Position numbers and translations under genes: made by a program
In this document: positions 8,093 through 23,798 of the stretch, in pieces
Numbering within the stretch: the stretch's first letter is position 1
How the letters are laid out: each line of letters starts with the position of its first letter
Source of the DNA: Candidatus Undinarchaeota archaeon
GTDB taxonomy: Archaea; SpSt-1190; JASMDC01
Direction of reading: 5' to 3'
Assembly: GCA_964519305.1 (NCBI GenBank)
Contig: CAZFHY010000001.1
Location: forward strand, 122,032-186,031
Length of the DNA: 64,000 nt
The notes under the pieces: model-generated
Told to the model about the DNA's origin: nothing
The model's database searches: none
What the model saw: the letters and a program-made list of their open reading frames with translations, nothing else

Positions 8093-8803
8093 TCACACCA
8101 GCCTGAAGTACACCCGTCGGTTGCCCTTGCCCTTGTTCTCGCACTTCATTACCTCAAGGGTACCTATCTCCGATGTGTTCTGGACATGGGTCCCACCGTC
8201 CGCCTGGACGTCGAAGTCCTCGATCTCTACGATGCGCAGGACCTTGAGACCCTCGGGGAGACCTTTGGCCAGCTTCGTGAGCCCACGTTGCTCCACTTCC
8301 TCCCTAGAGAGGTAGTACACCTTCACAGGTCGGCCTTCGCGGATGAGCGCGTTGGCCTTGTCAACACAGGTCTGGATGAGCTCCCGATCGAAATCCTTGA
8401 TATTGAAGTCGAATCGTGAGCGGTCGCAGTTGAGCTGGTTCCCCGTGATGAGCGCCCCACAGTCCTTATGGAACACCGTGGAGAGCACATGGGCGGCCGT
8501 ATGATAGCACATGAGCGTATGGCGGCGGTCCCAGTCAACGATGCAGTGAACAGCATCGCCCTCCTTGAGCGCTCCCTCGGGCTCGACCTGATGGGACACC
8601 TTCCCACCGAACTTTCCGACGTAGATTATCCGCACTTCACGACCGTCCTCGGTCACCATCCGCCCGGTGTCATGTGGCTGACCTCCGCCCGTGGGGTAGA
8701 ACGCGGTCCGGTCCAGCACCACGAACTTACCATCTGTGACACTGGCAACGGTAGCATCGAACTCCTTGAGATAGGCGTCGTCAAGGTAGAGCGCGTCTTT
8801 CAT
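8093..8803 (-). CDS. alaXM: Alanyl-tRNA editing protein AlaX-M
   Basis: Starts MKDALYLDDAY (ATG 8803). Contains FYPTGGGQPHDTG, HTAAH, QADGGTHV and NKGKGNRRVY. Confidence 0.92.
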   Translation of the reverse strand: MKDALYLDDAYLKEFDATVASVTDGKFVVLDRTAFYPTGGGQPHDTGRMVTEDGREVRIIYVGKFGGKVSHQVEPEGALKEGDAVHCIVDWDRRHTLMCYHTAAHVLSTVFHKDCGALITGNQLNCDRSRFDFNIKDFDRELIQTCVDKANALIREGRPVKVYYLSREEVEQRGLTKLAKGLPEGLKVLRIVEIEDFDVQADGGTHVQNTSEIGTLEVMKCENKGKGNRRVYFRLV

Positions 8804-8852
8804 GGATTGACCGGGCCCGTAAATGCTTATTAATCCTCTTGTGATGTCGCGG

Positions 8853-11699
8853 TCAGCCACCGTTCTGGCGCGGCCCCCGGCCTTCCTGCGAGCCTCGCCA
8901 CTCGGGTGCATGATACCAATTGCTACGACCAGCGGCGGCGTTCTGACCGGGAGCGCTTGCAGGATAGTACCCGGCTGTGTGCTGGTAAGTCGTGCGGCCC
9001 GTCGTGCCCTCTGTCGATGGGACTGTCTTGGCCACTCCATGTGAACTGCGTGCTAACGCAACGGAACCGGCGATCACTACCAGTAGGACCACACCGATGA
9101 AGATGCTCAGCCAGTTGATGGCACTGTCTGCACCACCGAGCCCGCCGATCCGCACCTCGGGTCGCGGATTCAGTTCCTTGCACCGCCATCCCGGGAGCTT
9201 GACGAAGGTTATCTTCATGTCGCTCATGGCAGCGTTGTCCACCTGCTTCTTCACCGAGAAGGCGAGGTCCACCTTCTTCTTCCCCTTGAGACGGTCAACG
9301 CTCCACAGTACGACAGGGTCCTCAACTACAACCTTCACGTCCTGCTTGAACGTGAGGCCCTTCACGCTCTCGGCGAAGGTCTTGGGTATTACCTGCACTA
9401 TACAGAAGTCCTCCTGGTCCTCTTCTTTTGTGTTCTCCACCGTTAGCTTCACCATGGTCGCTGTGGCCGCCTCTCCATCCGTCAACTCGCTGCCCTCCGA
9501 GTCGACCTGGACCACCTGACCGGTCACGCTCACGTCCATGACGGTACGGATGTTCTTCGAGGTCTCGAGCGCGTTCTCGGTCAGCTCCTCGGCGTCACCT
9601 CCGAACAGCTTCGAAAGATCGAACAGCTCCATTACGGCCGGGATGGCCACTGCCTCCGACTCCTGCTGAGGTACGAACTCGTGACGTGTAAGCGTGGTCA
9701 CGCCCGTGTCGTCGTTCCGTACCGCATCGACCTCGTCCCTGATGCGGCCGATGGTCTCCCGGGCACCGGCGAGGTCCCCGTCCCCCAGCGACCGCCACGC
9801 GGCCTGCACCAGCCCATCGAGGTCAGGAGGTCGCTCTCCCTTGAGCGCCATCAGCACGAGCATCTTATCCTGGAACACAGGAGAGGTCAGGAGCCTTTCG
9901 AGCTCTAGCAGGTCGGCGCAGTTGTCGTTACACTCCACGGGCATCCCCGTGCACACCGCTGCGCATCCCGCCTCCTTGGCCATATCAGAGATTGCCGCTG
10001 CCAGCGGATCAGATGGGACGCTCGCAGGAGCACCTCCTTGGTCGAGGGTCGATTCGTCCAGCGTCGGCCGAGGTCCTGGCGTGCTGGCCGGACCGTCCTC
10101 AGGTTCGTCTGGTGAGGGCCCCGTACCGTCATCGGGAGCATCGGTGGGTGCGGCCGTGGCGACGGTTGTGGGCACAGTGGTGGCGTACTGTGTCGGGACA
10201 GTGGTGGGAACTAGGGTCACATCACCGTCAGGGAGGGTCGTGGGCACAACGGTCGGGACCGTGGTTGGGACCAAGCTAGGGATGATGGTGGGGACCACGG
10301 TCGGGAGCGGAGTGGGGACCGGAGTAGGATTTGGGTCAGGTGTCGCTCCCGGTGAAGGGTCCGGGTACGGGTTCGGATCATCCTCCGGATCATCCTCCGG
10401 ATCGGGTTCGGGTGTGGTTTCTGGGATGGTGGTCGCTGCCGGAGGCGTACCCTCGGGCTCCTCCTCGGGAAGGATCGTGACGTTGGGGAGCGGAAGAGGT
10501 GTCGGCTCGGCCATGTCATCGGGATCGGGTGTAGGTGTAGCAATCTCCAGAGGGCCTGCCCGGGGCCAGAACTCCACGTGGTAGAGGTCCGAGTGCCCGC
10601 GTGACGTTCCCTGCCAGACTATGTGCACTTTCCCCCGGTACGTGACGGCGATGGATGGGTTCGAGTCCTCTCCCTCGGCATCGCTCACCTGCTGTACGTC
10701 CCAGGTCCGGCCCAGATTGCTGGAGAAACCGTACACAATCTCGGAGGACATGCTCGTCCTGTGCTCGGCGGTCAGGAGCACACGCTTTTTCCCGGATGTG
10801 ACGATCGAAGGACGGGACAGCTCCATCCCAGCTACTGCGTTCATCTCCCAGGTCGCACCACTGTTGCTTGAGCGGGCGATGTTGACCGTGATAGGACAGT
10901 AGGTCGCATTGCATGCAGGGTCCATCCCCTCCCAGGCCACGTACACGTCGTTACCGCGCACGGCTATGTCGGGATTCGTCTGACGCAAGGTGTCGGCGGT
11001 GATGTTGTGCAGGTCCCAGCTCAGCCCATTATCCTCAGAGACCGCGTGCAGGATGTCAACATCGATGCCCTCGTGTCGTTGCCAAGCCACGTGAAGGCGC
11101 CCGTTAGTTGTCACGCCCACCACTGGATTGCTATCGTCCGAGACCACTGTCGAGACCGCGCCTTGTGTCCAGGTCCGCCCCTTGTCCCAGGAGCTCGCCA
11201 CCATGATGTCCCGTGCCCCCTCGGGCCCACGCTCCCAGGTCATGTGTACATCGCCGTTCGAGCGGACGAAGAGGGCAGGATTGACATCGAGCTCAGGCCC
11301 GTCGGTCACCCTCGTCACCGCCCAAGACTTCCCACCATCCGTGGAACGACCATGGAATATGTCGAATCCCTCATCCTGGACCTGGTACCATGCAACATGG
11401 ATGGCCCATTTATGATGGTCGACGGCATGACGCGGGCCCAGCCCACAGGCGCTACCCCCTCCAGTCACCCTATGGGTCCGCCATTTCTTGGAGCGGAAGT
11501 CCTTGACGTACACGTTGAAGGTGTCGTCCCAGTCGGTGAACCAAGCGATCGTACGTTTGTGCTTGGAGTGATCTATGTTGATGATGGGGAAGAGATTGGC
11601 CCCCGCGTTGGAGGTGAGCCGGACAATCTTGCCGTCCTTGGCAGATCCCAGGAGGAGGAGCAAGACCATAACCAGGACGAGTTGTCGTGTGCTCACCAT
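8853..11699 (-). CDS. Surface protein: BNR/Asp-box (sialidase-like) beta-propeller, Pro/Thr-rich stalk, C-terminal TM, Tyr/Gly/Gln tail
   Basis: Signal peptide and repeated SxDxGxTW Asp-boxes (STDGGKSW, SWDKGRTW, SEDNGLSW, SSNSGATW, SSNLGRTW). PTxx repeats form the stalk. TM WLSIFIGVVLLVVIAGSVAL. Confidence 0.85.
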   Translation of the reverse strand: MVSTRQLVLVMVLLLLLGSAKDGKIVRLTSNAGANLFPIINIDHSKHKRTIAWFTDWDDTFNVYVKDFRSKKWRTHRVTGGGSACGLGPRHAVDHHKWAIHVAWYQVQDEGFDIFHGRSTDGGKSWAVTRVTDGPELDVNPALFVRSNGDVHMTWERGPEGARDIMVASSWDKGRTWTQGAVSTVVSDDSNPVVGVTTNGRLHVAWQRHEGIDVDILHAVSEDNGLSWDLHNITADTLRQTNPDIAVRGNDVYVAWEGMDPACNATYCPITVNIARSSNSGATWEMNAVAGMELSRPSIVTSGKKRVLLTAEHRTSMSSEIVYGFSSNLGRTWDVQQVSDAEGEDSNPSIAVTYRGKVHIVWQGTSRGHSDLYHVEFWPRAGPLEIATPTPDPDDMAEPTPLPLPNVTILPEEEPEGTPPAATTIPETTPEPDPEDDPEDDPNPYPDPSPGATPDPNPTPVPTPLPTVVPTIIPSLVPTTVPTVVPTTLPDGDVTLVPTTVPTQYATTVPTTVATAAPTDAPDDGTGPSPDEPEDGPASTPGPRPTLDESTLDQGGAPASVPSDPLAAAISDMAKEAGCAAVCTGMPVECNDNCADLLELERLLTSPVFQDKMLVLMALKGERPPDLDGLVQAAWRSLGDGDLAGARETIGRIRDEVDAVRNDDTGVTTLTRHEFVPQQESEAVAIPAVMELFDLSKLFGGDAEELTENALETSKNIRTVMDVSVTGQVVQVDSEGSELTDGEAATATMVKLTVENTKEEDQEDFCIVQVIPKTFAESVKGLTFKQDVKVVVEDPVVLWSVDRLKGKKKVDLAFSVKKQVDNAAMSDMKITFVKLPGWRCKELNPRPEVRIGGLGGADSAINWLSIFIGVVLLVVIAGSVALARSSHGVAKTVPSTEGTTGRTTYQHTAGYYPASAPGQNAAAGRSNWYHAPEWRGSQEGRGPRQNGG
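10140..10540 (-). repeat. Low-complexity Pro/Thr/Asp/Glu coding repeats (PEDD x2, tandem PTxx units)
   Basis: 12-bp unit ggatcatcctcc duplicated at about 10375-10400. The protein reads PTPVPTPLPTVVPTIIPSLVPTTVPTVVPTTLP. Confidence 0.8.
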
Positions 11700-11784
11700 C
11701 TTATGTCCCGACCAGATTCTACAGATTACTCAATCTCTCGCCTGAGAGCTATTTATAGCTTAAGCTCTCCCCGGACTGCATCCG

Positions 11785-12225
11785 ATGGACGAGGAGACGG
11801 CAACACTCCTGCGACGGCTAGACAAGCGCGTGCGTGGCAGGGACCACTATCTTTCGTTCCCCACACGGTTCTGCATCGAAGGGATCGAGGAGGAGTTCTT
11901 CTCAAAGTTCCTCGTGGCCGCCGTGGCCCGCCAGAAGTACCCTGCATTCTTCCAGCTCGTGCGCAGACTGCGCTCCCGTATTATCGCGCTTCCCTGCGAC
12001 ACCATCTCCGAGCGCGTGGAGGAGGAGCTGGACCGGGACCGGATACCTCTCCTCCTCCTCCCTGCCGACGTCCCCTCGAACCGCTATGAACGCGTGGACG
12101 GGCTCAACGTATGCGTTATGGACGTTGCCCTCGAAGAGTTCGAGCATATGGCTGCTGATCCGTTCATGGGCGACCTCTTCCCACCCGAGGTAGTCCGAGA
12201 GGTCAGGAAGGCGGCTCAGGCATAG
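11785..12225 (+). CDS. Hypothetical protein
   Basis: 146-aa ORF with ATG and protein-like composition. TTTATA box about 30 nt upstream. Confidence 0.65.
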   Translation: MDEETATLLRRLDKRVRGRDHYLSFPTRFCIEGIEEEFFSKFLVAAVARQKYPAFFQLVRRLRSRIIALPCDTISERVEEELDRDRIPLLLLPADVPSNRYERVDGLNVCVMDVALEEFEHMAADPFMGDLFPPEVVREVRKAAQA

Positions 12226-12668
12226 GCAGCCTCCAGGAGCTGTTCACCCTCGCTGAAGATGCCATAGGCTCCCGATGCAGCTTCCTTGAACCGTCCGTGG
12301 AGCCTGTGCCAGTTGATGCGGCAGGACTCGATCGTCTCGAGGTCCCGGGCCATGGTGGCGATGCTCCGCAGGCACGCCCGAACAACGATCTCCTCATAGA
12401 GATACTTCTCCGTCAGTTTCATCGACACCTCGACAGGGCTCACGTCGCAGTGGACCGCCTGGGTCAGCAGGAAGTCCCTCGCCTCCCTGAAGGCGTGGCC
12501 GTGCCGCACCGCCTCGAACATGAGAGCGATGTAGCTGCGCAGAGCGCGAGGAAGCTCGTCCTCGTCCGCACTGCTCCGGATCTCGGACGCAACTAGCGAG
12601 GCCTGCTCGCACACGCTCCGTTCGTACGCCCAGATTAGTTCCGATATGGTGTTCGATGTAGATTCCAT
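12216..12668 (-). CDS. Hypothetical alpha-helical protein
   Basis: ATG 12668 is preceded by a GGTGA RBS. It converges on the neighbouring gene with a 10-bp overlap. Confidence 0.65.
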   Translation of the reverse strand: MESTSNTISELIWAYERSVCEQASLVASEIRSSADEDELPRALRSYIALMFEAVRHGHAFREARDFLLTQAVHCDVSPVEVSMKLTEKYLYEEIVVRACLRSIATMARDLETIESCRINWHRLHGRFKEAASGAYGIFSEGEQLLEAAYA

Positions 12669-12694
12669 AGCACTCACCGAGAAGAAGCTCGCGG

Positions 12695-12765
12695 TGCCTA
12701 TCGCATAATAGGTACGACGGGTTTCTTCCCGGTCGTCCCTACCAGCAAGCTGGTATGCGATGGCA
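12695..12765 (-). promoter_or_regulatory. Structured 5' leader (three-way junction) of the 12216..12668 gene
   Basis: Minus-strand pairings: TGCC-ATCGCATA/TATGCGAT-A-GGCA; CCAG-CTTG-CTGG; TAGG.ACGA.CGGG/CCCG-TCGT.CCTA. It begins about 25 nt below a TTTTAAAT box at 12790-12797. Confidence 0.5.
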
Positions 12766-12869
12766 TAGCAGGAACTACTTCTTCATCGTATTTAAAATTA
12801 GACCGGGGGCGGGGATTCGTAAACGTGGTACGGGACTGATACCGGAGGCGTGTACCATTTTGGATGTAT

Positions 12870-14090
12870 CTAGAAGAACCTCAATCTCGCGAGGTTGACG
12901 ACCGCCATACTGAGCGGGAACCCGACGGTCGACAGGAACTTCGTCAGCGTCTCCTTGTCGAAAGGCCAGACGGGCATATCGCTGGCCTTCCTGTACAGCT
13001 CTTCAAGGTCATTGAGCTTTCTGAGCTTCTCGGGATCCACGTCCCGGTCCTCGTCAAGGACCTCGTTGTATATCGATTCGTAATAGGAATTGGTCTTCCG
13101 GCTCAGCCGGTCGAGCAGGTCGATCTTCTTCTCGCTCATGAGATGGTGGACCTTATGGAGGGGGTAGAAGAAGAGGAGCGTGGCGAGGGCCATGTAGACC
13201 ACTATCCCGGAATAGACCACCCACAACTGGGACGGGCTAGCGGTGAACAGCCCGACGCTGAGCCAGATACCGACGGCCAGGAGGACCGAGTCGACGGAGA
13301 AGCTCAGGTCGCCCAGAGGCTTCAGTCCGCCGGAATGGTCGGGGTGAAGCGGCTGGACGTTCAGGTCGAACTCATCGCTCAGCCGTCTCAGGTAGAACAC
13401 GGTCACGAGCACCTTCCATACAATGAGAGCGAAGAAGACCGCTATGAGCATGTCCCCGAGGACGTAGGAGCCTCTCGTCACCGGGAACCGGTCCACGGTG
13501 CACCAGTCGTACTCGCCTACGGGGATGCTGAAGTTGACCACACCGACGATGAGCGCGAACACGAGAGCGAGGAGGTATGCGTCCTTGTGATTGAGACGTC
13601 GCTCGAAGTCCTTGAGGAAGCTTCGGTACTCCTCGCGGAGCTGCTCGAGGTCCGAACTATCCCCCTCCTTCAGAGAGATTGTCTGCTGGTCCCACAATCG
13701 GTCGTAGCAGAGATTGGTATTGCGGAAAAGACGCTTGATCAGAGGGATGGAGAGGATGAGTATCAGATAGCCCGGAACGCGCCATCGCGATGAACAGGGC
13801 AGGTGCCACAACGCCCAAGCTCCAGAGGCGAGGCGACTCCCCCCGAAGGGAGCGATGCTACGGGCGCTCGTGCCAGTGGCATCGGCCATCTGTTCCGCGG
13901 TGGGGAGGCCGTGGTACCCGATTATGGATAGCAGGATGCATAGGAAAAGAACGACAATGAGATGGAAATTATCCATGAGCCCCTTGACGTAGGGATTGTC
14001 GACCAACGTGATCTCATAGAAGATGCCAGCTACATCGTCATCTTTTAGATCCAAGGTAGATACCAACCCCCGCAATAAGGTCCTGAACAC
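12870..14090 (-). CDS. Multi-pass membrane protein of unknown function
   Basis: Several TM segments, with motif-like HPDHSGGLKPLG and C-terminal PVWPFD. Confidence 0.75.
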   Translation of the reverse strand: MFRTLLRGLVSTLDLKDDDVAGIFYEITLVDNPYVKGLMDNFHLIVVLFLCILLSIIGYHGLPTAEQMADATGTSARSIAPFGGSRLASGAWALWHLPCSSRWRVPGYLILILSIPLIKRLFRNTNLCYDRLWDQQTISLKEGDSSDLEQLREEYRSFLKDFERRLNHKDAYLLALVFALIVGVVNFSIPVGEYDWCTVDRFPVTRGSYVLGDMLIAVFFALIVWKVLVTVFYLRRLSDEFDLNVQPLHPDHSGGLKPLGDLSFSVDSVLLAVGIWLSVGLFTASPSQLWVVYSGIVVYMALATLLFFYPLHKVHHLMSEKKIDLLDRLSRKTNSYYESIYNEVLDEDRDVDPEKLRKLNDLEELYRKASDMPVWPFDKETLTKFLSTVGFPLSMAVVNLARLRFF

Positions 14091-14135
14091 TCACCTATAA
14101 AAAAATGTGGCACCATCAGCATCTCGGGTTCTACC

Positions 14136-14339
14136 ATGGAAAAGGGTTCTATCAAGATCGTGGGATACGGCGTACACTCCGGCGAGGGCCGGCTCAGCTG
14201 GACATGCAACTGCGAGGGCGAGCACGCGCCCCATCACGGGCTCCAGATGCAGTACGGGCTGCTGGCGAAGATCCGCTGCCCCAAGTGTGGGACCGAGGCC
14301 ACTATACTTGGCGACGAGGTCCCCAAGATCCTCGAGTAG
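14136..14339 (+). CDS. Small putative Zn-ribbon protein
   Basis: 67 aa with CNC...CPKCG. CTATAAAAAA box about 30-40 nt upstream. Confidence 0.6.
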   Translation: MEKGSIKIVGYGVHSGEGRLSWTCNCEGEHAPHHGLQMQYGLLAKIRCPKCGTEATILGDEVPKILE

Positions 14340-14403
14340 TTAACAGGCCTGACGGCTCCTTCAACGGACAGGTGACGGTCCGAGCCTTAGCGCTAATAAG
14401 CTA

Positions 14404-16860
14404 CTACCGGACGCTCGCCTCGAACTTCGCGCGGAAGTCCTTGTCCTGGCTGAACCGGGTTATGTAGTCCATGAACACCGGTAGGCTAAGGCTGCCCGGC
14501 TGCTGTTTGTGCCTGTAGTACAGGCTCTCCAGGAACTTCATCCGGACGTACCGCTCCCGTTCGTACTCCTGGTCGGTCATGTCCATGTTGTACTCGGCGA
14601 TACGTCTCTCCAGGGGCGAGAGGCCTTTCACCATGCGCACCACCTGCTTGGACTTGGTGTCGTACTTGTACACCTGCAGGAGCGGGGGGATGTCCAGTTC
14701 GGCGGGCTTGGACTTGTCGATCTCCACGATCTCGATGACGCGACGGAGCTGAACACGCTTGCGCTCCTTGGAGTCGTAGAACGAGAGTCGCCGCTGTACG
14801 AGGATGATGTCCAGGGTCTGGATATCCATGGGAGCGATGTTCATGGGAGGATTCTTCATGCGCTTGGCGGCCGACGTGGCGTCCAGTGCGTGGAACGTGC
14901 ACATACATCCGCGTGCCTGTCCGGCCAGCACCGAGTTGATGAAGGCCCGCGCCTCTTCGCCCGAACGCACCTCACCCACGATGACCCGGTCAGGCCGCAT
15001 ACGCAGAGTATCCTCCAGCAGGTCCTCCATCCCGATCTCGGCCTGGGGAACGGTGACGACCCGGGCCTGGTGGTTGTGGGGCAGGTTGATCTCGGGGGTT
15101 GACTCCAGAATGATGATGCGCTCGTCGGGCGGGATGAACGTCGAGATGGCATTGAGGGTGGTGGTCTTTCCCGAGCCGGTGTTTCCGCCGATGAGCATGG
15201 AGATCTCGTTCTCCAATGTCAGCCACATGTAGGTGAGCGCGTCGATCGACATGGTACCGAACTCGGCGATCTCGATGGGGGTGAGCGGGTTCGCCCGGAA
15301 CTTGCGGATGGTGATGAGCGAACCGGTCAGGGTCATGGGACTGATGCACGCATGGAGACGGGAGCCGTCGGGAAGCCGGGTGTTGACCCGAGGGTGCATA
15401 TCATCGATCTTTGCCCCCGGCTGGGATCGCACCATGCGCTCGATGATGGCCCGCACCTCCATCTGACCTCCCTTGTCGGGATTGAAGAAGATGTTGGTCT
15501 TGAGCATCCCGTACTTGCGGTGGTAGACGTAGATAGGCCGCGCCTGGCCCACACCGATACCCATTACCTCCTCCAGGGCGTCGTCCTTGAGCAGGAGGTC
15601 GAAGGGACCGAACCCCGTGGAGTTGAGGGTCGCGAGCATGGAGAGAGGGTCCAGCTTCTCCGGGTCCACGCCAGCACCCATGTACCGGGCCACCTCTAGG
15701 ATGAACGCTTTCATCTGTTCGTACGTGGACGTGTTGAGCGAACCCGACTCGATGAACCGGTCGATGGAGCGCTTGATGATGGTACGTTCCACATCAGAGA
15801 TCGAGGGTATGACGTTCACGTAGTACACGGGCTTGGGTTCGCTGGGGACCATGGCGATGGAACCGAAGGTACGGGCGGTGCCCTCGTCATTGATCACGAT
15901 TGGCTCGAGCTCACGGATCGACTGGGCAGGGAAGACCGACAGCGACCATGTACCCGTGTCGACGGCAGCGCTGACCTGCTCGGCATGGACGGCCTCGATG
16001 GCGTTGAAGCCCTGGTTGGCGCATTCCTCTAGACAGAGGGGATGGTCGGCGACGCCGTAGCAGATGTCGCACTTCCGGGCGATGTCCCCGAGCACCCAGA
16101 TGGAATCGTAGGGGCATGCTTTGACGCACTCGCCGCAGCCAGTACACCTGTCCTCCTGCACGCTGAGGATGTCCTTGCCCGGCCCCACGGGCACGATGGC
16201 CTTCTCGGGGCACGCCTTGGCACAGTCCGCGGTCTCGGGCGTACAATGCTTGCACATGATGGGTGCATTGTCGAATTTGATCGCCTGCTTGGGGCACACA
16301 GGGACGCACTTGGCGCATCGCGTGCATGAGTTGTAGTTGATCGCGATCTTTGAGGACATGGGTGCCGAGGTGTTGGCAATCTTTATATGGGGTGTGTTTT
16401 CGGGCAGTTCCGATGGTGGGGATTCATCCCCCTTGCCCTTCTTCTTCCCGGTCTTTGCCTTCTGCGTCTGTCCTTTCCCCTTCGCAGGAGGCGCTTCCTT
16501 CTTCGGCGGGGCAGGGCTAGGAGCAGGGGGCGGGGTCTTTTTCTTTGGAGGCACCTCCTTCGGCGGTGTCGGCTTCGGGACCGGAGGCGGGGATTCCTTC
16601 TTGGAGGGTGCATTCTTCGGCGGTGAGGGCTTGGGTGCGGGCGGAGTCGTCGCCTCCGGAGGCGGAGACTGTTCCTCCTTCTTGGGAGGTACCTTCTTCT
16701 TAGGAGTTGTCGGGATGGATACCCGTCGGGATTGTTTCTTTGTGCTGATGGCGTCGGGCATCCGTTCGATACGCTGGAGCTTGGCGCCCTTCGCGCCTGC
16801 AGGCAGCCGTGGTGGTGGTGGTGGAGGTGCCTTCTTCTTCCCCTTCTTTTCCGGGCTCAT
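14404..16860 (-). CDS. TadA/CpaF/VirB11-family secretion ATPase with N-terminal Pro/Lys-rich region and multi-[4Fe-4S] ferredoxin domain
   Basis: Walker A GNTGSGKTT, LRMRPDRVIVGEVR, TFHA, LPDGSRL and ITIRKF. Cys motifs CTRCAKCVPVCP, CKHC..C...CP, CTGCGECVKACP and CDIC......CLEEC lie in the same frame. Confidence 0.9.
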   Translation of the reverse strand: MSPEKKGKKKAPPPPPPRLPAGAKGAKLQRIERMPDAISTKKQSRRVSIPTTPKKKVPPKKEEQSPPPEATTPPAPKPSPPKNAPSKKESPPPVPKPTPPKEVPPKKKTPPPAPSPAPPKKEAPPAKGKGQTQKAKTGKKKGKGDESPPSELPENTPHIKIANTSAPMSSKIAINYNSCTRCAKCVPVCPKQAIKFDNAPIMCKHCTPETADCAKACPEKAIVPVGPGKDILSVQEDRCTGCGECVKACPYDSIWVLGDIARKCDICYGVADHPLCLEECANQGFNAIEAVHAEQVSAAVDTGTWSLSVFPAQSIRELEPIVINDEGTARTFGSIAMVPSEPKPVYYVNVIPSISDVERTIIKRSIDRFIESGSLNTSTYEQMKAFILEVARYMGAGVDPEKLDPLSMLATLNSTGFGPFDLLLKDDALEEVMGIGVGQARPIYVYHRKYGMLKTNIFFNPDKGGQMEVRAIIERMVRSQPGAKIDDMHPRVNTRLPDGSRLHACISPMTLTGSLITIRKFRANPLTPIEIAEFGTMSIDALTYMWLTLENEISMLIGGNTGSGKTTTLNAISTFIPPDERIIILESTPEINLPHNHQARVVTVPQAEIGMEDLLEDTLRMRPDRVIVGEVRSGEEARAFINSVLAGQARGCMCTFHALDATSAAKRMKNPPMNIAPMDIQTLDIILVQRRLSFYDSKERKRVQLRRVIEIVEIDKSKPAELDIPPLLQVYKYDTKSKQVVRMVKGLSPLERRIAEYNMDMTDQEYERERYVRMKFLESLYYRHKQQPGSLSLPVFMDYITRFSQDKDFRAKFEASVR

Positions 16861-17570
16861 GCGGAGAACCCGGCCTCCTTCTCCATCTCCACGAGCTCCG
16901 AATCGAGCTGTTCGTCGTCGACCTTCACTGAAGCGGATTGGATGTCCCGCTTCTTGTCGCGGAGGTCTGCGAGCTTTTCTTCATAGCCCTCAAGGTCACG
17001 GTCGATGAGGGACAGCGTCTCCACGATGAGGTGGAAAGGATCCTCGTCCTGGAGCACCTCTTCCCGACGGCCCAAGCTCTCGGTCTCCTCCCTGGATATC
17101 TTCAGAGACTGCTGATGGTTGGCGATGCCTTCCACCATCAACCGACATTTCTTGACCAGGTTCTGCAGGTTCTCTTTGCTCTTGAGCTTGGCCTTTATTG
17201 CGAGCTTGTTCATGATGAAGGTCCTCGCCCCAGTGGCGTTCCCGCCCCGGAGGGTCATGAACGCCTCCTGATGGAAGTGCATGATCTGGTTGTTGTAGGT
17301 CACGTCCTTCTGCCGGATAATGTCGATCTCTTCCTCCGTCTTATCGACGAAGTCCTCGACCTCGATCCGCCTCTCCTTGAGCCGGTCATCGAGCGCCTCT
17401 ATGTTCTGGATGATCTCGTAGGCGCGCGGGTCCGTGAAGGAACCACCCTTCCTCTTCTTCTTCAGAAGGAGGATGAGCACGATGGCGAGCACCCCGATCC
17501 CCCCAACTCCGAGGAAAAGGTAGAGCGGATCGATACCCAAGATGGGGTCCATGCCTTCAAAGGGGTTCAT
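16857..17570 (-). CDS. N-terminally membrane-anchored coiled-coil protein, Snf7/ESCRT-III-like
   Basis: ATG 17570 has a GAGGT RBS and a TTTATAT box upstream. TM LYLFLGVGGIGVLAIVLILLL is followed by KKKRK. The helical hairpin QI...EA...L..GN...A and C-terminal VDDEQLDSEL resemble Snf7. Its stop overlaps the ATPase start (ATGA). Confidence 0.7.
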   Translation of the reverse strand: MNPFEGMDPILGIDPLYLFLGVGGIGVLAIVLILLLKKKRKGGSFTDPRAYEIIQNIEALDDRLKERRIEVEDFVDKTEEEIDIIRQKDVTYNNQIMHFHQEAFMTLRGGNATGARTFIMNKLAIKAKLKSKENLQNLVKKCRLMVEGIANHQQSLKISREETESLGRREEVLQDEDPFHLIVETLSLIDRDLEGYEEKLADLRDKKRDIQSASVKVDDEQLDSELVEMEKEAGFSA

Positions 17571-17604
17571 GCGCTCGGACCTCGGTGTTGAAATGATATA
17601 AAGC

Positions 17605-19767
17605 CTATGTGCCGGTCCTGCGGAGCACGAGCGCCGTTCGGGACGGTATGTACACCTGCACGGACTGTGCCTGATCGTGGGCCGGGACCTCTTGGCTGGA
17701 CAGTGCGATCGAGTCATCTACACGCCCATGACCGCCGAGGTCGCTCGCATCGCTATCCAGCACGATGCTGTACTCGCCCGCCTCGGGTACACCGAACCGG
17801 TAGTCCGGGATGGATGCCGATGGATTGAAGTTGAAGATGAAGACGAGCCCCCCCCGCTCGAAAATGAGCACGTTGTTGGCCTCGTCCACGTTGAGCCGAC
17901 GGGCAGGGCCCGCGGCAAGCATGCTAGTCTCAGTGGCGAGCCCGATCATGACCTTGTCGAACGCGAGCAGGTATCTGTAGCGGAGGTCCTTGTCATCGGC
18001 CAGCGACCACTGGCGGCGGGCGTGCTTGTAGCTCCAGCTGTTGCCCTCTCGTGGGAAATCGATCCACTCCGGATGGCCGAACTCGTTGCCTATGAAGTTA
18101 AGGTACCCTTCACCGCCCAGGGCGAGCGTGATGAGCCGGATCATCTTGTGGAGGGCCATACCGCGGTCGACGCGAAGGCTCTGATCGCCGGTGCGCATGA
18201 ACCAGTACATGTCCGCATCCATGAGCCAGAACGCGAGGGTCTTGTCCCCCACCAGCGCCTGATCGTGGCTCTCCGCGTAGGCTATGGTCCGCTCTGACGG
18301 ACGCCGGTTGGTGAGCACGTTCCACAGCTCGTTCATGCTCCAGTTCTCGTCGGGAACGTGCTTTAACAGCTTGATCCAGTAGTCCGGGATGCCCATGCCC
18401 AACCGGTAGTCGAAACCAAGGCCTCCCTCGATGACAGCACGTCCGAGTCCCGGCATACCCGACATATCCTCGGCGATGAGCCAGGAACAGGGTTTCACCT
18501 CCTTACAGATAGTGGCAGCCAGCTGGATATACGTGATCGCCTCATGGTCGATGTTGTGCTTGAAGTACATGTCGTAGTGTGTGAAGTCCACCCCGAACCC
18601 GTGATGTAGGTACATCATGGAGGTGATGCCGTCGAACCGGAATCCATCGAAATGATACTCTTCCAGCCAGTACCGCAGATTGGACAGGAGGAAGTGGACT
18701 ACCTCGATCTTCCCGTAGTTGAATAGCATGGAGTCCCAAGATATGTGTTCCCCGCGAGGACCCTCGTGGAAGAACTGCCATACGGTGCCGTCGAACCGGT
18801 TGATACCCTCTGCCAGGTTCTTGACGGCATGGGAGTGCACGAGGTCGAGCAGCACTCGGATGCCTAGGCGGTGAGCGGTGTTCACTAGGTACTTCAGGTC
18901 CTCAGGAGTGCCGAACCTCGATGAGGGGGCGAAGAAGTTCGAGACGTGATAACCGAAGGAGCCGTAATAGGGGTGCTCCTGGACGGCCATGAGCTGGATT
19001 GCGTTGTACCCCAGCTCCTTGATTCGAGGAAGGACGTTGTCCGCGAACTCGCGATAGGTGCCGATGCCCTCCCGTTCCTGGGCCATTCCTACATGTGCTT
19101 CATAGATGACGAGCGGCTCGTCCTTCTGTGGCTTGAATCTGCCGTCGGTCCACTTGAACGGCTTCGGGGGCAGCCATACCTGGCCTGCGAAGTCCTTGGT
19201 ATCATCGTCCTGTACAGCACGACGGACATAGAGCGGGATACGGTCCATGCTCCCCTCCTCGGAGACCACGTGGACCTTGACCTTGCTACCATGGGTGAAC
19301 GTCTTCTTGTACTCCTTCCGGGGCAGGAAGATCTCCCACTGGCCCATCTCCTTCTGCTCCAGTGGATGTGATGTGCGGTCCCAGCCGTTGAAGTCGCCTG
19401 TGAGATAGAGGGCATTGGCATTGGGCGCCCACTCGCGGTACACCCACCCGTCCTTCACCTCGTGGATGCCGAACCAGAGGTGGCCGGAGGCGAACTCCGT
19501 GAGAGAGGAGTTATGTGCGTAGATGTGGTCGAGCATGCGTTCGTAGCGTTCATGACGGAGCCTCAGCTCACGCTTGTAAGGCTCGAGCCATGGATCGACG
19601 ACGATGAGACCGGTGCCGTCGGTGGGCAGGGAAGGTCTTTCCGGCTCCTGTGCTAGAGCGTTCGCTGGGGCCTTACGAGCCTTGGACGGCGGTTTCGTAT
19701 TCACCACCCGCTCGATGCGGGGTCCTTTGACCCGTATCTCCGTCCTAGATCGCTTCTTCCCCGTCAC
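17605..19767 (-). CDS. glgB: 1,4-alpha-glucan (glycogen) branching enzyme, GH13
   Basis: YREWAPNA, YEAHVGMA, EHPYYGSFGYHV, FDGFRFDGITSM, AEDMSGMP, YAESHDQALVGDKT and GNEFGHPEWIDFPR. Confidence 0.95.
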   Translation of the reverse strand: MTGKKRSRTEIRVKGPRIERVVNTKPPSKARKAPANALAQEPERPSLPTDGTGLIVVDPWLEPYKRELRLRHERYERMLDHIYAHNSSLTEFASGHLWFGIHEVKDGWVYREWAPNANALYLTGDFNGWDRTSHPLEQKEMGQWEIFLPRKEYKKTFTHGSKVKVHVVSEEGSMDRIPLYVRRAVQDDDTKDFAGQVWLPPKPFKWTDGRFKPQKDEPLVIYEAHVGMAQEREGIGTYREFADNVLPRIKELGYNAIQLMAVQEHPYYGSFGYHVSNFFAPSSRFGTPEDLKYLVNTAHRLGIRVLLDLVHSHAVKNLAEGINRFDGTVWQFFHEGPRGEHISWDSMLFNYGKIEVVHFLLSNLRYWLEEYHFDGFRFDGITSMMYLHHGFGVDFTHYDMYFKHNIDHEAITYIQLAATICKEVKPCSWLIAEDMSGMPGLGRAVIEGGLGFDYRLGMGIPDYWIKLLKHVPDENWSMNELWNVLTNRRPSERTIAYAESHDQALVGDKTLAFWLMDADMYWFMRTGDQSLRVDRGMALHKMIRLITLALGGEGYLNFIGNEFGHPEWIDFPREGNSWSYKHARRQWSLADDKDLRYRYLLAFDKVMIGLATETSMLAAGPARRLNVDEANNVLIFERGGLVFIFNFNPSASIPDYRFGVPEAGEYSIVLDSDASDLGGHGRVDDSIALSSQEVPAHDQAQSVQVYIPSRTALVLRRTGT

Positions 19768-19844
19768 AGTAACTCCCGCTACCGACCTATCCCTTCGTTA
19801 ATATGAAGCTTTGCTTTACGTAGAAGGAGGCTTGCTCGCCCCTG

Positions 19845-19860
19845 AGAAAGCCTTTTTAAC
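19845..19860 (+). promoter_or_regulatory. BRE/TATA promoter of tRNA pair
   Basis: GAAAGC-CTTTTTAAC, about 28 nt upstream of tRNA-Val. Confidence 0.6.
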
Positions 19861-19887
19861 CTTTGCCCCCTGTGGGGAGGCTGCGGC

Positions 19888-19962
19888 GGGCCTGTGGTCT
19901 AGTTGGTCCATGACATCCGCCTTACTAGCGGGGGATCGCCGGTTCGAATCCGGCCGGGCCCA
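19888..19962 (+). tRNA. tRNA-Val (TAC)
   Basis: Acceptor GGGCCTG/CGGGCCC+A. Anticodon arm TCCGC-CTTACTA-GCGGG. T arm GCCGG-TTCGAAT-CCGGC. CCA is not encoded. Confidence 0.92.
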
Positions 19963-19976
19963 TAGGCCGTCGCGGA

Positions 19977-20053
19977 GCCGATGTGGTGTAGCCTGGTTAG
20001 CACCGGGGACTGTGGATCCCCGAGCTCGGGTTCAAATCCCGGCATCGGCCCCA
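19977..20053 (+). tRNA. tRNA-His (GTG)
   Basis: Acceptor GCCGATG/CATCGGC, discriminator C, encoded CCA. Anticodon arm GGGGA-CTGTGGA-TCCCC. T arm TCGGG-TTCAAAT-CCCGG. Confidence 0.95.
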
Positions 20054-20123
20054 TCTTCACAGTGCTAGTGTGAGCGCTCAACCATGAAGTAATCCCGGAT
20101 GTCAAGTACCGGGATAACCGGAC

Positions 20124-21374
20124 CTAGTATGTCTTGTACTTCTTCACGGACCCTGACCGGAAGGAGCCCCTGAACCGCCTTGGCGGGCCCCGGGATTGCC
20201 TCGGGGGCGGCCGCGCGGCCGCTCCGAACGCGTCCATCGCACGGTTCGAATGGAACCTGTGGTCCACGAGCGTCATTTTCACCCGTGTGAGCCGCTCGAT
20301 ATCGCGCAGGAGGTCGCGTTCCTCCGCCGAGCACAGAGAAAGGGCCATGCCTGACGCCCCGGCCCGCGCCGTACGCCCTATGCGGTGGATGTAGACCTCG
20401 GACTCATTAGGGAGATTATAGTTGACAACGTGTGAGATGTTATCGACGTCGATACCGCGTGCAGCGATGTCCGTAGCAACGAGCACCTGAATGCGGCCCG
20501 ATTTGAAATTGTTCATCGCCTGAGTTCGTCGGTTCTGAGTCTTATTGCCGTGGATGGCATCGGCCTCGATCCCGTGCTTGTTGAGCACGCGGGCCACCTT
20601 GTTCGCCCCGTGCTTCGTGCGGGTGAACACCAAGGCGGATGTCACGTGTCGCATACGGAGGAGCTCGATCAACAATGCATCCTTGGCGTTGCGATCCACG
20701 AAGAAGACGCATTGGTCAACGCTCTCTACTGTGGTCGCCTGAGGAGCCACCTCCACACGGACCGGATCTACGAGAAACTGTTGGACGAGCTCACGTATCG
20801 TCGCTGACATGGTAGCTGAATAGCATTGTGATTGGCGTAGGCGGTGGAACTTGGCAACGATCCGGCGGACGTCATTGATGAAGCCCATGTCTAGCATCCT
20901 GTCCACCTCGTCGAGCACGAAGTACTCGACACCGTTCAGCTTGATGTAACCCTGGTTCATCAGGTCGAGAAGCCGTCCCGGTGTGGCTACGAGGATGTCG
21001 ACGCCCCGGGAAAGGGCCCTGACCTGTTGCCCCTGCTTGACGCCTCCGAACACGACCGTGTGCCTGAACTTGAGGAACCGGCCATAGGTACCAAAGCTCT
21101 CGTCGATCTGTGCAGCGAGCTCTCGCGTGGGCGCGAGAACGAGCACGCGGGGAGATCCCGGAACGGGGACCCAGCGCTCTTCGGACAGTTTTTGAAGAAT
21201 AGGCAATACGAATGCAGCGGTCTTGCCCGTGCCCGTCTGGGCGATGCCGATCAGGTCGCGTCCATTCATGAGATGGGGGATGGCCTGCTCCTGTATCGGC
21301 GTGGGCGTGGTGTATCCTTCTTTATCCAACGCCCGCTGGAGTGGCTCAATGAGATTCAGTTCTTCAAATGACAT
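20124..21374 (-). CDS. DEAD-box RNA helicase (RhlE-like)
   Basis: Starts MSFEELNL after a GAGGT RBS. Q motif PTPIQ, AQTGTGKT, PTRELA, TPGRL, DEVD, SAT, ARGID and HRIGRTARAG. Confidence 0.93.
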   Translation of the reverse strand: MSFEELNLIEPLQRALDKEGYTTPTPIQEQAIPHLMNGRDLIGIAQTGTGKTAAFVLPILQKLSEERWVPVPGSPRVLVLAPTRELAAQIDESFGTYGRFLKFRHTVVFGGVKQGQQVRALSRGVDILVATPGRLLDLMNQGYIKLNGVEYFVLDEVDRMLDMGFINDVRRIVAKFHRLRQSQCYSATMSATIRELVQQFLVDPVRVEVAPQATTVESVDQCVFFVDRNAKDALLIELLRMRHVTSALVFTRTKHGANKVARVLNKHGIEADAIHGNKTQNRRTQAMNNFKSGRIQVLVATDIAARGIDVDNISHVVNYNLPNESEVYIHRIGRTARAGASGMALSLCSAEERDLLRDIERLTRVKMTLVDHRFHSNRAMDAFGAAARPPPRQSRGPPRRFRGSFRSGSVKKYKTY

Positions 21375-21600
21375 GTTTTTACCTCGGGATGATCTGTAGA
21401 ACGTTGATAGATGACCTGAGGATGGCCGGGGGTATTTAAATACCGGGGGTGGGTCCTTCTTTCGGATATGTCCTCGAGCGGGATATCCGTTCTCAGCCCC
21501 AATCATCGGCCTTCACATGCTGCACTGCTATCCAACACCGGGCTTTGAATGGGCCCGGACCCTCAACCTTATTAAAACACTGATGCGATGACCGCCCGGG

Positions 21601-23199
21601 ATGGCGATGATCCACCTCCTCAACGACCTCCTGCGGCCGTTGATACCCGATTCGGTCCTCATCGCCTTCTTCCTGTTCCTTGCAGCGCTCCTCACCGCAC
21701 GTCGGTCCCTATCATGGCAGTTCCGACGTATCGGCCAAGGGACATGGTCGCTTCTGGCGGTCGTGGTCCTCATCACGTTATGGATCAGGCTGACCATCCC
21801 GCCTCTACAGCACGTGATATACGTGGACGAAGCACAGTACATGGAGGCCGGTAAGGAGATGCTGCGGACGGGCCACCAGGGCGAACTGATCCTGTCCGTG
21901 GGATGGCCGTTCGTTCTCAGGCTTGCGTTCGCACTCTTCGGGACATCTAACTGGGTGGCCATCAACACTTCGATCCTGCTCGGAGCGCTCTCCGTCGTTC
22001 CCCTCTTTCTCCTCGCCTACCTAGTAACGGACCGTACCGATCTGGCACTTGTTGCCTCGATGGTGTTGGCGCTCTATCCTCCGCACATCAGGTGGTCGGC
22101 CACCGCTGCGAGCAACGCGTCCTCCCTCTTCTTCATGCTCCTGACGCTCGTGTTCTTCATGGTCTATTATCGGACGGAAAGGACATCCGTGGCGTGGCTC
22201 GCCTGGATGAGCATCGCCTTCACGGCCCAGTTCCGGCCCGAGAACCATGCTCTTATCGTCCTGTTCCTCATCGGTCGGGTCATCATAGGTGGTAGAGGCA
22301 AGCGCATGCCGGGCTCGATATATTTGATCCAGGGCCTCATCATGGTGCTCCTCGTCCTCCCCAATCTTGCACAGGTGCTCGAGGACAATGTGTACACGAA
22401 CTGGATAGAGAGCGATAGTGACGGACGCATGACGGGCAGCAACTGGAGCCTCGCCAATCTCGTCAACAACTCCCGTGAGTACGGTCCGGAACTGTTCGGC
22501 GGCATCTACCACCCGTTGATCGTACCAGTGATGATGGTCATCGGTATGGTCGTTCTTACCACCAGGAAACAGCCCGAGAGCCAGTTCCTCATGACATGGT
22601 TCGTGGTCTTGTGGCTTATCTACTTCACGTCCTGGTTCCAGACCCTGGCGGGGAGGGATAGGTTCTACATGGTCCTGTATCCGGCCATCGCCATCTATGC
22701 GGCAGCGGGAGCTGTCCATCTGGCTGACGCACTATCGACCCACCTCACGAGTTCATGGACGCGGTGGGGCGCCCTCATCATAGTAGCGGTCCTCACCGTC
22801 CATATCTACGTTCCATATACGGTGTTCGGCTCGAAGACGTACTCGCAATCCGCCCTTGCTCTCGAGACGAGGATACCGGAACTGGCGGAACAAGAACTCC
22901 CGCCCGATTGCGTGATCGTCGCGAACTGGCCTGTGATCCTGAGGTCCACTACAGAGCTCGAGGTCGTCGACCTCGATGATTTCGTCCAGCTCCTCCCTGT
23001 CCAGGAGGGATTGTTCGGACGGACCCAGTGCATCCTCTTCTTCGAGGACTACACCTGTCTGGACTGGAAACCCTACCTGGCCCAACGTTGCGACCTTTTC
23101 CGAAGGATGTTCGAGACCGAACCATACAGGAGCTATCAGGAAGGAGAGACCCGGTACACTTTCCATCGCATTACGCGGAGAAATATCGCAGTAGGGTGA
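21601..23199 (+). CDS. GT-C-fold membrane glycosyltransferase (PMT/ArnT-like)
   Basis: About a dozen TM segments. First-loop VDEAQY, FRPEN and RFY motifs, and a soluble C-terminal domain. Confidence 0.75.
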   Translation: MAMIHLLNDLLRPLIPDSVLIAFFLFLAALLTARRSLSWQFRRIGQGTWSLLAVVVLITLWIRLTIPPLQHVIYVDEAQYMEAGKEMLRTGHQGELILSVGWPFVLRLAFALFGTSNWVAINTSILLGALSVVPLFLLAYLVTDRTDLALVASMVLALYPPHIRWSATAASNASSLFFMLLTLVFFMVYYRTERTSVAWLAWMSIAFTAQFRPENHALIVLFLIGRVIIGGRGKRMPGSIYLIQGLIMVLLVLPNLAQVLEDNVYTNWIESDSDGRMTGSNWSLANLVNNSREYGPELFGGIYHPLIVPVMMVIGMVVLTTRKQPESQFLMTWFVVLWLIYFTSWFQTLAGRDRFYMVLYPAIAIYAAAGAVHLADALSTHLTSSWTRWGALIIVAVLTVHIYVPYTVFGSKTYSQSALALETRIPELAEQELPPDCVIVANWPVILRSTTELEVVDLDDFVQLLPVQEGLFGRTQCILFFEDYTCLDWKPYLAQRCDLFRRMFETEPYRSYQEGETRYTFHRITRRNIAVG

Positions 23200-23228
23200 G
23201 GCCTGCTATTCTGGACGTGGTGTCCAGT

Positions 23229-23723
23229 TCACGTTGCGCCTGAAAAGAACGTGTGCGCGATGAGACCAGCGATCGGTGCGAAGAGGATCGTGCTGGCGAT
23301 GTGGATGAGGGTTATCTTCCATCCCAGGATACCCACTGCCATCGGGAGCCGGGCGATCGACAAGAGCCCCCAAGCGGTCAGGAACGCGACCAAGGTCCCA
23401 ACGCCGGCACCTGCCTTGAGGAAACCGGCTGCGATGGGGAAGGTCACATGGGGTCCGCCGGGAGCGAGAGTACCGGCCGCCGTACCGATGAGGATCCCCC
23501 GCGTGCCCGATTCAGCGCTCACCCACTCGGAGACCAGCTCCTCGGGCACTAGGACCTGTACCATCCCGGCCACGACGAACGCAGCTATCAGGAGGGGCAG
23601 GACCTGTACCGTCATGTCCAGGCCGGCCTTCAGACCGGTGATGTGCAGGTCACCTCCCTTTGAGTAGCCAATGTAGAGAAGCACGAGCGCGAGTGCTCCC
23701 ATCAGTAAAGTAGGTGCCAACAT
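23229..23723 (-). CDS. Permease (ArsP/DUF318-like half-size)
   Basis: Hydrophobic protein with GTLAPGGP..TFPIAAGFLKAGAGVG..VAFLTAW. Confidence 0.75.
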   Translation of the reverse strand: MLAPTLLMGALALVLLYIGYSKGGDLHITGLKAGLDMTVQVLPLLIAAFVVAGMVQVLVPEELVSEWVSAESGTRGILIGTAAGTLAPGGPHVTFPIAAGFLKAGAGVGTLVAFLTAWGLLSIARLPMAVGILGWKITLIHIASTILFAPIAGLIAHTFFSGAT

Positions 23724-23798
23724 GGACGGTTTCCTCCTTTTTACTTCCATACGCCAGCATCAGCGAGGTTATCCCGACAAGAAAAAGAACCTTTATTA

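Follow-up and report, generated by a model that had tools for sequence, protein, structure and literature searches.

What kind of system could be formed when a membrane-anchored helical protein and a pilus-type ATPase are encoded by overlapping genes? This question is raised by a locus in the genome of a Candidatus Undinarchaeota archaeon (G000; 3.63 Mb, with a completeness of 99.8% and a contamination of 4.3%), within a stretch of 64,000 nucleotides, hereafter the window, that corresponds to positions 122032 to 186031 of contig C1. Two overlapping minus-strand open reading frames (ORFs) span positions 14404 to 17570 of the window; all coordinates given for the pair refer to this strand. The first gene (16857 to 17570) encodes P0002, a membrane-anchored helical protein of 237 residues that is a divergent candidate member of the ESCRT-III superfamily. 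The second (14404 to 16860) encodes P0001, a protein of 818 residues in which a FlaI/TadA-type ATPase core is preceded by a ferredoxin domain and, before that, a disordered tail. An original prediction, made from the sequence of the window alone, had proposed that the two form an undescribed membrane-remodeling or extrusion machine. The analysis confirmed a real, lineage-restricted, and previously unreported gene pairing; the identities of its components are partly supported, and the proposed machine is unproven.

Structure and conservation of the gene pair

The stop codon of P0002, whose start codon is backed by the alignment of its homologs, overlaps the start codon of P0001 in an ATGA at positions 16857 to 16860. 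This overlap, on which the original prediction was built, was confirmed by reading the sequence, and the same 4 nucleotides are shared in loci L018 and L019. The overlapping arrangement is present in the same-genus genome G001 and on one metagenome contig. An AGGAGG sequence lies within the 3' end of P0002, 14 to 19 nucleotides ahead of the ATPase start (16874 to 16879). Comparison with G001 revealed 56 synonymous and 16 nonsynonymous codon differences in P0002, and 135 synonymous and 24 nonsynonymous differences in residues 161 to 818 of P0001, showing that P0002 and the ATPase core are both under purifying selection in this same-genus comparison.

The pair had also been credited with a TATA box and a ribosome-binding site of its own. 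Both motifs are present: a putative TATA-like TTTATAT (17596 to 17602), identical in G001, is found 26 to 32 nucleotides ahead of the P0002 start codon, and a Shine-Dalgarno-like GAGGT (17579 to 17583), changed by one base to GAGGC in the sister species, is found 9 to 13 nucleotides ahead of the ATG at 17570. They occupy the spacer of 34 nucleotides, nearly identical in G001, that separates P0002 from the stop codon (17607 to 17605) of the upstream GH13 branching-enzyme gene (17605 to 19767). With the TATA-like element centered about 29 nucleotides before the ATG, the transcript start is predicted almost at the ATG itself. The two motifs can therefore hardly serve one transcript, and this part of the claim is unlikely.

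Hydropathy predicts a single N-terminal transmembrane helix in P0002, at approximately residues 15 to 36 (17463 to 17528), and a hydrophobic stretch is found in all seven members of the family. The flank preceding the helix has a net charge of −3, and a KKKRK sequence follows the helix directly. Because of this acidic N-terminal flank and the basic residues after the helix, P0002 should be oriented N-out and C-in, with a helical body of about 200 residues in the cytoplasm, on the same side as the ATPase. The most conserved block of the family comprises residues 97 to 122 (17205 to 17282), where the invariant columns of the seven-sequence alignment read MHFHQEAF..LR..N..GARTF..NK.

The family is confined to a single genus plus three lineages from metagenomes. 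Members from the same genus share at least 91% identity with P0002, followed by P0009 (71%), P0131 (40 to 42%), and P0133 (36 to 41%). An exhaustive phmmer search over 1.84 billion representatives retrieved two clusters, word-indexed searches retrieved 8 and 10 proteins, and a genome collection and a metagenome collection contained one locus each, both at 93% identity. A hidden Markov model (HMM) of the family, searched against 401 archaeal genomes, gave real matches in G000 and G001 only; the 10 other matches (E values of 1.5e-5 to 8e-3) were short or contained stop codons and were rejected. None of the 215 genomes from the class of genome G314 carries a family member, and none was found in viral contigs and phage records or, by tblastn, as a paralog within the genome itself.

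P0002 is a divergent candidate member of the ESCRT-III superfamily

The resemblance of P0002 to Snf7 was examined with profile-profile alignment, using the seven-member family alignment as the query and, as the reference, 13 archaeal proteins whose loci score above the Pfam cutoff for Snf7. A GPPGxGKT-type AAA motif occurs within 1.5 kb in 9 of the 20 archaeal Snf7 loci fetched. Alignment by hhalign gave a probability of 94.1% (E value of 1.3e-7) over 137 columns, placing residues 88 to 235 of P0002 (16866 to 17309) on columns 35 to 176 of the Snf7 profile. In this alignment, the invariant GAR block of the family falls on the "Ak.a.k.G....aR" segment of Snf7. As a calibration, archaeal PspA, an accepted homolog, reaches 91.0% with the same Snf7 set.

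The controls remained well below these values. The reversed query gave 1.3% and the reversed target 2.5%, and the maxima of 40 shuffling runs each were 1.2% with blocks of 1 column, 3.2% with blocks of 7, and 31.9% with blocks of 14, so that none of the 120 column and block shuffles reached 50%. FlaD/E, another helical family, reached 0.2% against the Snf7 profile. Two nonoverlapping halves of the P0002 family matched the same Snf7 columns in the same register, with 55% for the members of its own genus together with P0009 and 91% for P0131 together with P0133. When the genome was searched with an HMM of the Snf7 set, the P0002 frame ranked third of 13,858 frames (E value of 0.18), and among the top eight frames it alone gives a long hhalign alignment. 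The look-alikes of P0002 in a protein language model are PspA/IM30 clusters, with similarities of 0.83 to 0.84 that lie under the threshold of 0.9 and count as a lead only; in the calibration of this method, one in three shuffled proteins reaches 0.8.

These results suggest that P0002 distantly resembles ESCRT-III proteins, being very divergent and closest to a profile of the Snf7/CdvB type, and the odds that it belongs to the superfamily are judged to be roughly two in three. The description of P0002 as membrane anchored and Snf7-like is thus borne out for the anchor and for the profile-profile match (94%, with controls at 32% or less), but not by Pfam, which sees no Snf7 domain. Neither P0002 nor any of its six relatives matches Snf7 (PF03357) at E values up to 10, and a six-frame search of the genome with this model found nothing at E values up to 1. 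PspA/IM30 (PF04012) likewise has no match in the family or in the genome. Since neither a match to a curated model nor a Vps4 was found, the pair is not a member of a canonical ESCRT system.

P0001 is related to platform-linked ferredoxin-ATPases

Pfam confirmed both of the domains that had been assigned to the ATPase. The secretion ATPase core, residues 361 to 778 (14527 to 15780), matches T2SSE (PF00437) with 128.4 bits (cutoff, 24.9), and the ferredoxin domain, residues 179 to 280 (16021 to 16326), matches Fer4 with 51.4 bits (cutoff, 21.1). The best NCBIfam matches are archaellum FlaI (222 bits; equivalog cutoff, 550) and the TadA family (151.5 bits; cutoff, 373). Because both scores are under their cutoffs, P0001 is best classified as a member of the T2SSE family that is an equivalog of neither archaellum FlaI nor TadA. 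Within the Walker A loop, G559 to T566 (15163 to 15186), residues G559, T561, S563, G564, K565, and T566 are invariant in an alignment of 28 sequences, as are D624, E630, and H657 of the Walker B motif and the His box, and P0001 is thus a FlaI/TadA ATPase of the hexameric type whose catalytic motifs are intact.

The ferredoxin domain contains 16 cysteines in four groups, which are invariant or nearly invariant across the 28 homologs and follow the CxxCxxCxxxCP-type pattern of 4Fe-4S ferredoxins (PF00037 and relatives). This part of the protein gives partial NCBIfam matches to the iron-sulfur subunits HydN, DmsB, and AegA, and by analogy with these families it could bind up to four clusters. 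It is preceded by a low-complexity N-terminal extension, residues 1 to 160 (16381 to 16860), that is rich in proline (45 residues) and lysine (34 residues) and has a pI of 10.4. Between G000 and G001, the extension differs by 33 synonymous and 41 nonsynonymous codon changes and 14 in-frame gap codons, with its frame and composition kept. It is a recent, fast-evolving addition, because in-frame indels separate the sister species and because it is absent from P0012 and P0013, which are 70% identical to P0001.

The fusion itself does not set the module apart. Among the best 120 of 7,936 homologs with E values of 1e-5 or better, 60 carry a cysteine-rich ferredoxin-type N-terminal domain, with lengths of 503 to 806 residues (median, 578), and many of the 120 are labeled Micrarchaeota or Diapherotrites at their source. 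A search of the 401 archaeal genomes listed 150 matches, with 573 further matches beyond them; among those listed, the ferredoxin part is covered in G000 (two matches), G001 (two matches), G314, G102, G162, G344, G154, G211, and G284. The ferredoxin-ATPase fusion is widespread among DPANN-type archaea, where such proteins share 31 to 37% identity, the domain order, and the four cysteine groups with P0001.

A paralog of P0001 in the same genome is 49% identical. At its locus, outside the window (C1:44461-48897; positions 8462 to 12898 of locus L060), the ferredoxin-ATPase gene is followed by T2SSF genes of 425 and 300 residues, an arrangement that is likely the ancestral state. Nine ferredoxin-ATPase loci (L060 to L068) were examined for platform genes. 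Two polytopic membrane proteins are encoded directly 3' of the ATPase in six of them (L060, its G001 ortholog L068, L061, L062, L065, and L066); in L063 and L064, the contig ends within a membrane protein just after the ATPase, and in L067 it ends within the ATPase. All 10 downstream proteins of the five loci that were tested with Pfam match T2SSF, 8 of them above the cutoff. Upstream of the ATPase, a P0002-like gene is missing from all nine. By its own terms, the original prediction would be refuted if ATPase homologs consistently accompanied TadC and pilin genes, and for the wider ferredoxin-ATPase family, the paralog included, this objection holds, as two T2SSF genes come right after the ATPase.

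A quick IQ-TREE analysis of 41 ATPases, including two long-branch sequences from contigs C2 and C12 of the same genome, groups P0001 with P0011, P0012, and P0013 (SH-aLRT support of 100). The sister group (99) of this clade is the platform-linked paralog from the same genome, and both lie inside the DPANN-type clade (100). Because of this topology, and because T2SSF genes follow the ATPase in every complete locus examined, P0001 is best explained as a duplicate of a pilus-type ferredoxin-ATPase whose platform genes have since been lost from its locus.

Platform, pilin, and Vps4 genes in the window and the genome

It had been claimed that no TadC/ArlJ platform gene or Vps4/CdvC gene lies next to the pair, and this proved correct. 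The window contains no T2SSF match, and the eight T2SSF matches of the genome, seven of them above the cutoff, all lie elsewhere. Snf7, PspA_IM30, Vps4_C, and MIT have no match in the 99.8%-complete genome, which extends the absence of Vps4 from the locus to the genome. T2SSE has seven matches, six above the cutoff, and two of these ATPases are without an adjacent T2SSF gene, namely P0001 and the product of C16:5398-7356. Conversely, two T2SSF-like genes are without an adjacent ATPase, C1:585561-586616 (34.2 bits) and C15:22813-24090 (19.4 bits, under the cutoff). The claim that no pilin adjoins the pair stands as "not found": no pilin-like ORF was detected by a heuristic scan of positions 9000 to 24000 of the window, but PF07790 and PF04021 match nothing anywhere in the genome and are hence uninformative. 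PF04659 (Arch_fla_DE) also has no match in the genome.

Several further loci carry related genes. The T2SSF protein encoded at C1:585561-586616 (locus L014, C1:585026-587954) has 351 residues and no ATPase nearby; in the products of the small genes that flank it, an Arg/Lys-Gly-Gln motif precedes an N-terminal hydrophobic helix, which looks pilin-like by eye. The second platform-less ATPase (locus L003, C16:5043-7356) has 652 residues, with an N-terminal zinc ribbon followed by T2SSE and PilB3_C, and its 3' end is overlapped by a Lys/Glu-rich gene of 122 residues that has no Pfam match. Two ORFs near T2SSF/ATPase loci, at C15:21664-22812 and C1:39060-40328 (L060, 3061 to 4329), start with the glycine-rich sequences GIGQAGN or GLGQGG, which by eye recall GTPases of the tubulin/FtsZ type and make these ORFs candidates for that family. 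An FtsZ-family GTPase is mentioned for archaeal type IV pilus loci in passages of Makarova et al. 2016 (PMC4858521).

The genome is also large for its surroundings. The only same-genus genome has about 3.8 Mb, and the 15 other genomes listed under the same GTDB class have 0.6 to 1.2 Mb. Close relatives are labeled "Candidatus Undinarchaeales archaeon" or "Methanopyri archaeon" at NCBI. GTDB kinship and the NCBI labels place this large-genome lineage, amid genomes of DPANN size, with the Undinarchaeia (DPANN).

Other features of the window

Downstream of P0001, a gap of 314 nucleotides holds a small ORF on the opposite strand and is followed by the gene for a five-helix membrane protein of 406 residues. 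The latter has no Pfam match and was rejected as a hidden platform protein, as hhalign gives 0.13% against the T2SSF profile. The small ORF (14136 to 14339, plus strand) encodes 67 residues with two CxxC-like pairs, possibly a zinc ribbon, and has no Pfam match either. Elsewhere in the window, four very large plus-strand ORFs of 1432, 1664, 1678, and 1209 residues (1092 to 5390, 43298 to 48292, 48295 to 53331, and 53375 to 57004, respectively) were found, of which those of 1432, 1664, and 1209 residues have no Pfam match at E values up to 1e-5. A minus-strand gene (8853 to 11699) encodes a protein of 948 residues that has BNR repeats, an extended linker rich in Pro and Thr, and a hydrophobic segment at the C terminus; it is probably located at the cell surface.

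Comparison with known systems

The pair shares features with several known systems and coincides with none of them. With archaeal ESCRT-III (CdvB/Snf7) and Vps4/CdvC, it has in common the Snf7 profile match of P0002, a similar protein size, and a ring-type ATPase encoded alongside. It differs in that P0002 has no Pfam Snf7 match and carries a transmembrane anchor, and in that the partner is an ATPase of the FlaI/TadA type (T2SSE) rather than an MIT-AAA+ Vps4, of which neither the Vps4_C nor the MIT domain has a match in the genome. Passages of two sources describe co-occurrence with Vps4 as a defining feature of archaeal ESCRT-III (PMC7619361 and PMC11237479), and in the review among them ESCRT-III is stated not to be found in DPANN (PMC7619361).

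PspA/Vipp1 (IM30) proteins belong to the ESCRT-III superfamily, act on the inner face of the membrane, and are sometimes paired with an ATPase (PspF in Proteobacteria), and their clusters are the language-model look-alikes of P0002. P0002 departs from them in its hhalign score of 0.3%, in lacking a PF04012 match, and in having a true membrane helix instead of the amphipathic helix alpha0. In bacteria, operons that contain AAA+ ATPases also encode Snf7/PspA homologs bearing a transmembrane segment, as described in parts of Ravi et al. 2024 (PMC11237479); these operons likewise combine a membrane-tethered superfamily member with an ATPase, but they use classical AAA+ proteins and, in those parts of the paper, include components of ABC transporters.

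A different precedent is offered by the archaellum. Crenarchaeal FlaX is described in sections of two papers as a monotopic, FlaI-binding protein whose coiled coil mediates ring formation (PMC4307647 and PMC5019145), and by analogy it may serve as a precedent for membrane tethers of the FlaI-type ATPase family. FlaX/ArlX with FlaI/ArlI and P0002 with P0001 share the same architecture and gene-neighborhood logic, namely, a monotopic protein with a helical cytoplasmic body next to a FlaI-type ATPase. Unlike archaellum loci, the P0002/P0001 locus has no FlaH, FlaJ, or archaellin genes. A FlaD/E-like identity of P0002 was rejected, with hhalign giving 0.5% against 11 FlaD/E proteins in a comparison that did not include FlaX. 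The DPANN-type ferredoxin-fused TadA/FlaI ATPases, which resemble P0001 in domain order and cysteine groups, differ in being followed by two T2SSF genes, in lacking the 160-residue Pro/Lys extension, and in not being coupled to P0002.

The pairing of an ESCRT-III/PspA protein with a pilus or secretion ATPase was not found in the literature searched, including the main texts of PMC4858521, PMC11237479, PMC7619361, and the preprint 10.1101/2024.02.06.579148, whose supplements could hold cases; within these limits, the pair is unreported. Ferredoxin-fused pilus ATPases are likewise not mentioned, supplements aside, in the archaeal type IV pilus census (PMC4858521) or in PMC11237479.

Possible mechanism and competing explanations

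These features can be reconciled in a lineage-specific operon in which P0002 is a membrane partner of the ESCRT-III superfamily that is assembled or turned over by P0001, the platform-less duplicate; this reading is tentative, and its chances are judged to fall a little short of even. A ferredoxin-ATPase whose usual partners are two T2SSF platform proteins would have been duplicated, and one copy would have shed its platform genes and then become translationally coupled to P0002. P0002 would assemble at the cytoplasmic side of the membrane, serve as the membrane partner of the ATPase, and recruit P0001, whose ATP hydrolysis would in turn assemble, turn over, or remodel P0002. In such a system, the pilus-type ATPase would fill the role that Vps4 has in canonical ESCRT-III, or the one that belongs to a platform or scaffold in pilus systems. 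The Fe-S domain, inherited from pilus-type ancestors, probably links activity to the redox state and would tie it to the state of an electron carrier. The two proteins may bind each other, polymerize, remodel membranes, and respond to redox state, and what the original prediction said of "redox-sensing," of a "filament," and of "vesicle or tube formation" is to be read in the same conditional sense. A more specific version, a Vps4-independent and motor-swapped ESCRT-III machine in which a transmembrane-anchored polymer is remodeled by a PilB/FlaI-type Fe-S hexameric ATPase that descends from a duplicated pilus ATPase of this Undinarchaeia-placed (DPANN) lineage, is unlikely.

Several observations weigh against the operon reading, and some of them also feed a rival explanation, that P0002, as a coiled-coil protein, matches Snf7 by chance or composition and has an unrelated fold, its coupling to P0001 being real but belonging to no known class of machine. 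No Pfam, NCBIfam, PHROGs, or PDB sequence search gives P0002 an ESCRT-III or PspA match at E values up to 10. The family reaches 0.3 to 0.4% with five archaeal PspA proteins by hhalign, one of three subsets of the Snf7 set gave 1.3%, as against 81% and 49% for the others in the same register, P0002 as a single sequence reaches 18% with Snf7, the profiles are shallow (query Neff of about 1.9), and the language-model similarity of 0.84 is under its threshold and close to what a third of shuffled proteins attain. In addition, the cytoplasmic body of P0002 is acidic in its N-terminal third (pI 5.65), unlike helix 1 of ESCRT-III, which is basic. A chance match is nevertheless distinctly unlikely, as the reversed and shuffled controls never reached 50%, the unrelated helical FlaD/E family scored 0.2% with the same Snf7 profile, two nonoverlapping halves of the family matched the same columns, and the 137-column alignment sets the invariant GAR motif on the Gly/Arg motif of Snf7. 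The gene adjacency also carries less weight than its recurrence suggests. It is known only at identities of at least 91% (G000, G001, L019, and probably the contig encoding P0006 and P0011), and because all documented cases are this similar, it counts as a single observation and its conservation is not independent evidence. Conservation of the pair across archaeal genomes, which was to be expected from the original prediction, thus holds in so far as the overlap is kept in the sister lineage, but the pair is found only among these close sequences. The distant relatives P0009, P0131, and P0133 may have no such partner, since no ATPase 50 to 65% identical to P0001 is found among the best 120 of the 7,936 homologs. 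That the genes are mere neighbors after a rearrangement, with no shared function, would agree with their restriction to one genus-level lineage and with the lack of expression data, the listing of RNA runs having yielded none that holds the stretch; it is very unlikely, given that the 4-nucleotide overlap and the internal AGGAGG are kept between species, that purifying selection acts on both genes, and that the 314-nucleotide gap with its opposite-strand ORF sets the pair apart from the next downstream gene.

A further explanation accepts the partnership and dispenses with ESCRT-III. P0002 could be a passive tether or scaffold, similar to FlaX/ArlX or GspL, for an ATPase that powers a type IV pilus-like fiber through a platform encoded elsewhere, the likeness to ESCRT-III being functionally meaningless. 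The close relatives of P0001 are all platform linked, and P0002, with its single membrane helix, its helical body in the cytoplasm, and the FlaI-like ATPase alongside, has the outline expected of a tether. Because unpaired ATPases and unpaired T2SSF genes both occur in the genome, it is possible that the orphan T2SSF protein encoded at C1:585561-586616 serves P0001 in trans, which also counts against the operon reading. This gene, however, is separated from the pair by about 447 kb of the same contig, and the heuristic scan found no pilin-like gene near the module. P0002 has no sequence relation to FlaD/E, crenarchaeal FlaX standing outside that comparison, and a passive tether would leave its specific Snf7 profile match unexplained. 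A tether of this kind is therefore considered somewhat unlikely, and an ESCRT-III-superfamily partner of a platform-less ATPase is retained as the working interpretation.

Implications

Vps4 is regarded as the regulator of ESCRT-III-superfamily proteins in archaea and eukaryotes, and bacteria are considered to control theirs differently. The P0002/P0001 pair is an unreported pairing that is known so far from one narrow lineage, and it is small enough for direct in vitro tests. The ferredoxin-fused pilus ATPases, a family widespread in DPANN-type archaea, link the assembly of surface fibers to Fe-S chemistry. If the proposed partnership is true, the ESCRT-III polymer family would be able to recruit a ring ATPase of another class, and a pilus motor could be reused once its platform has been lost.

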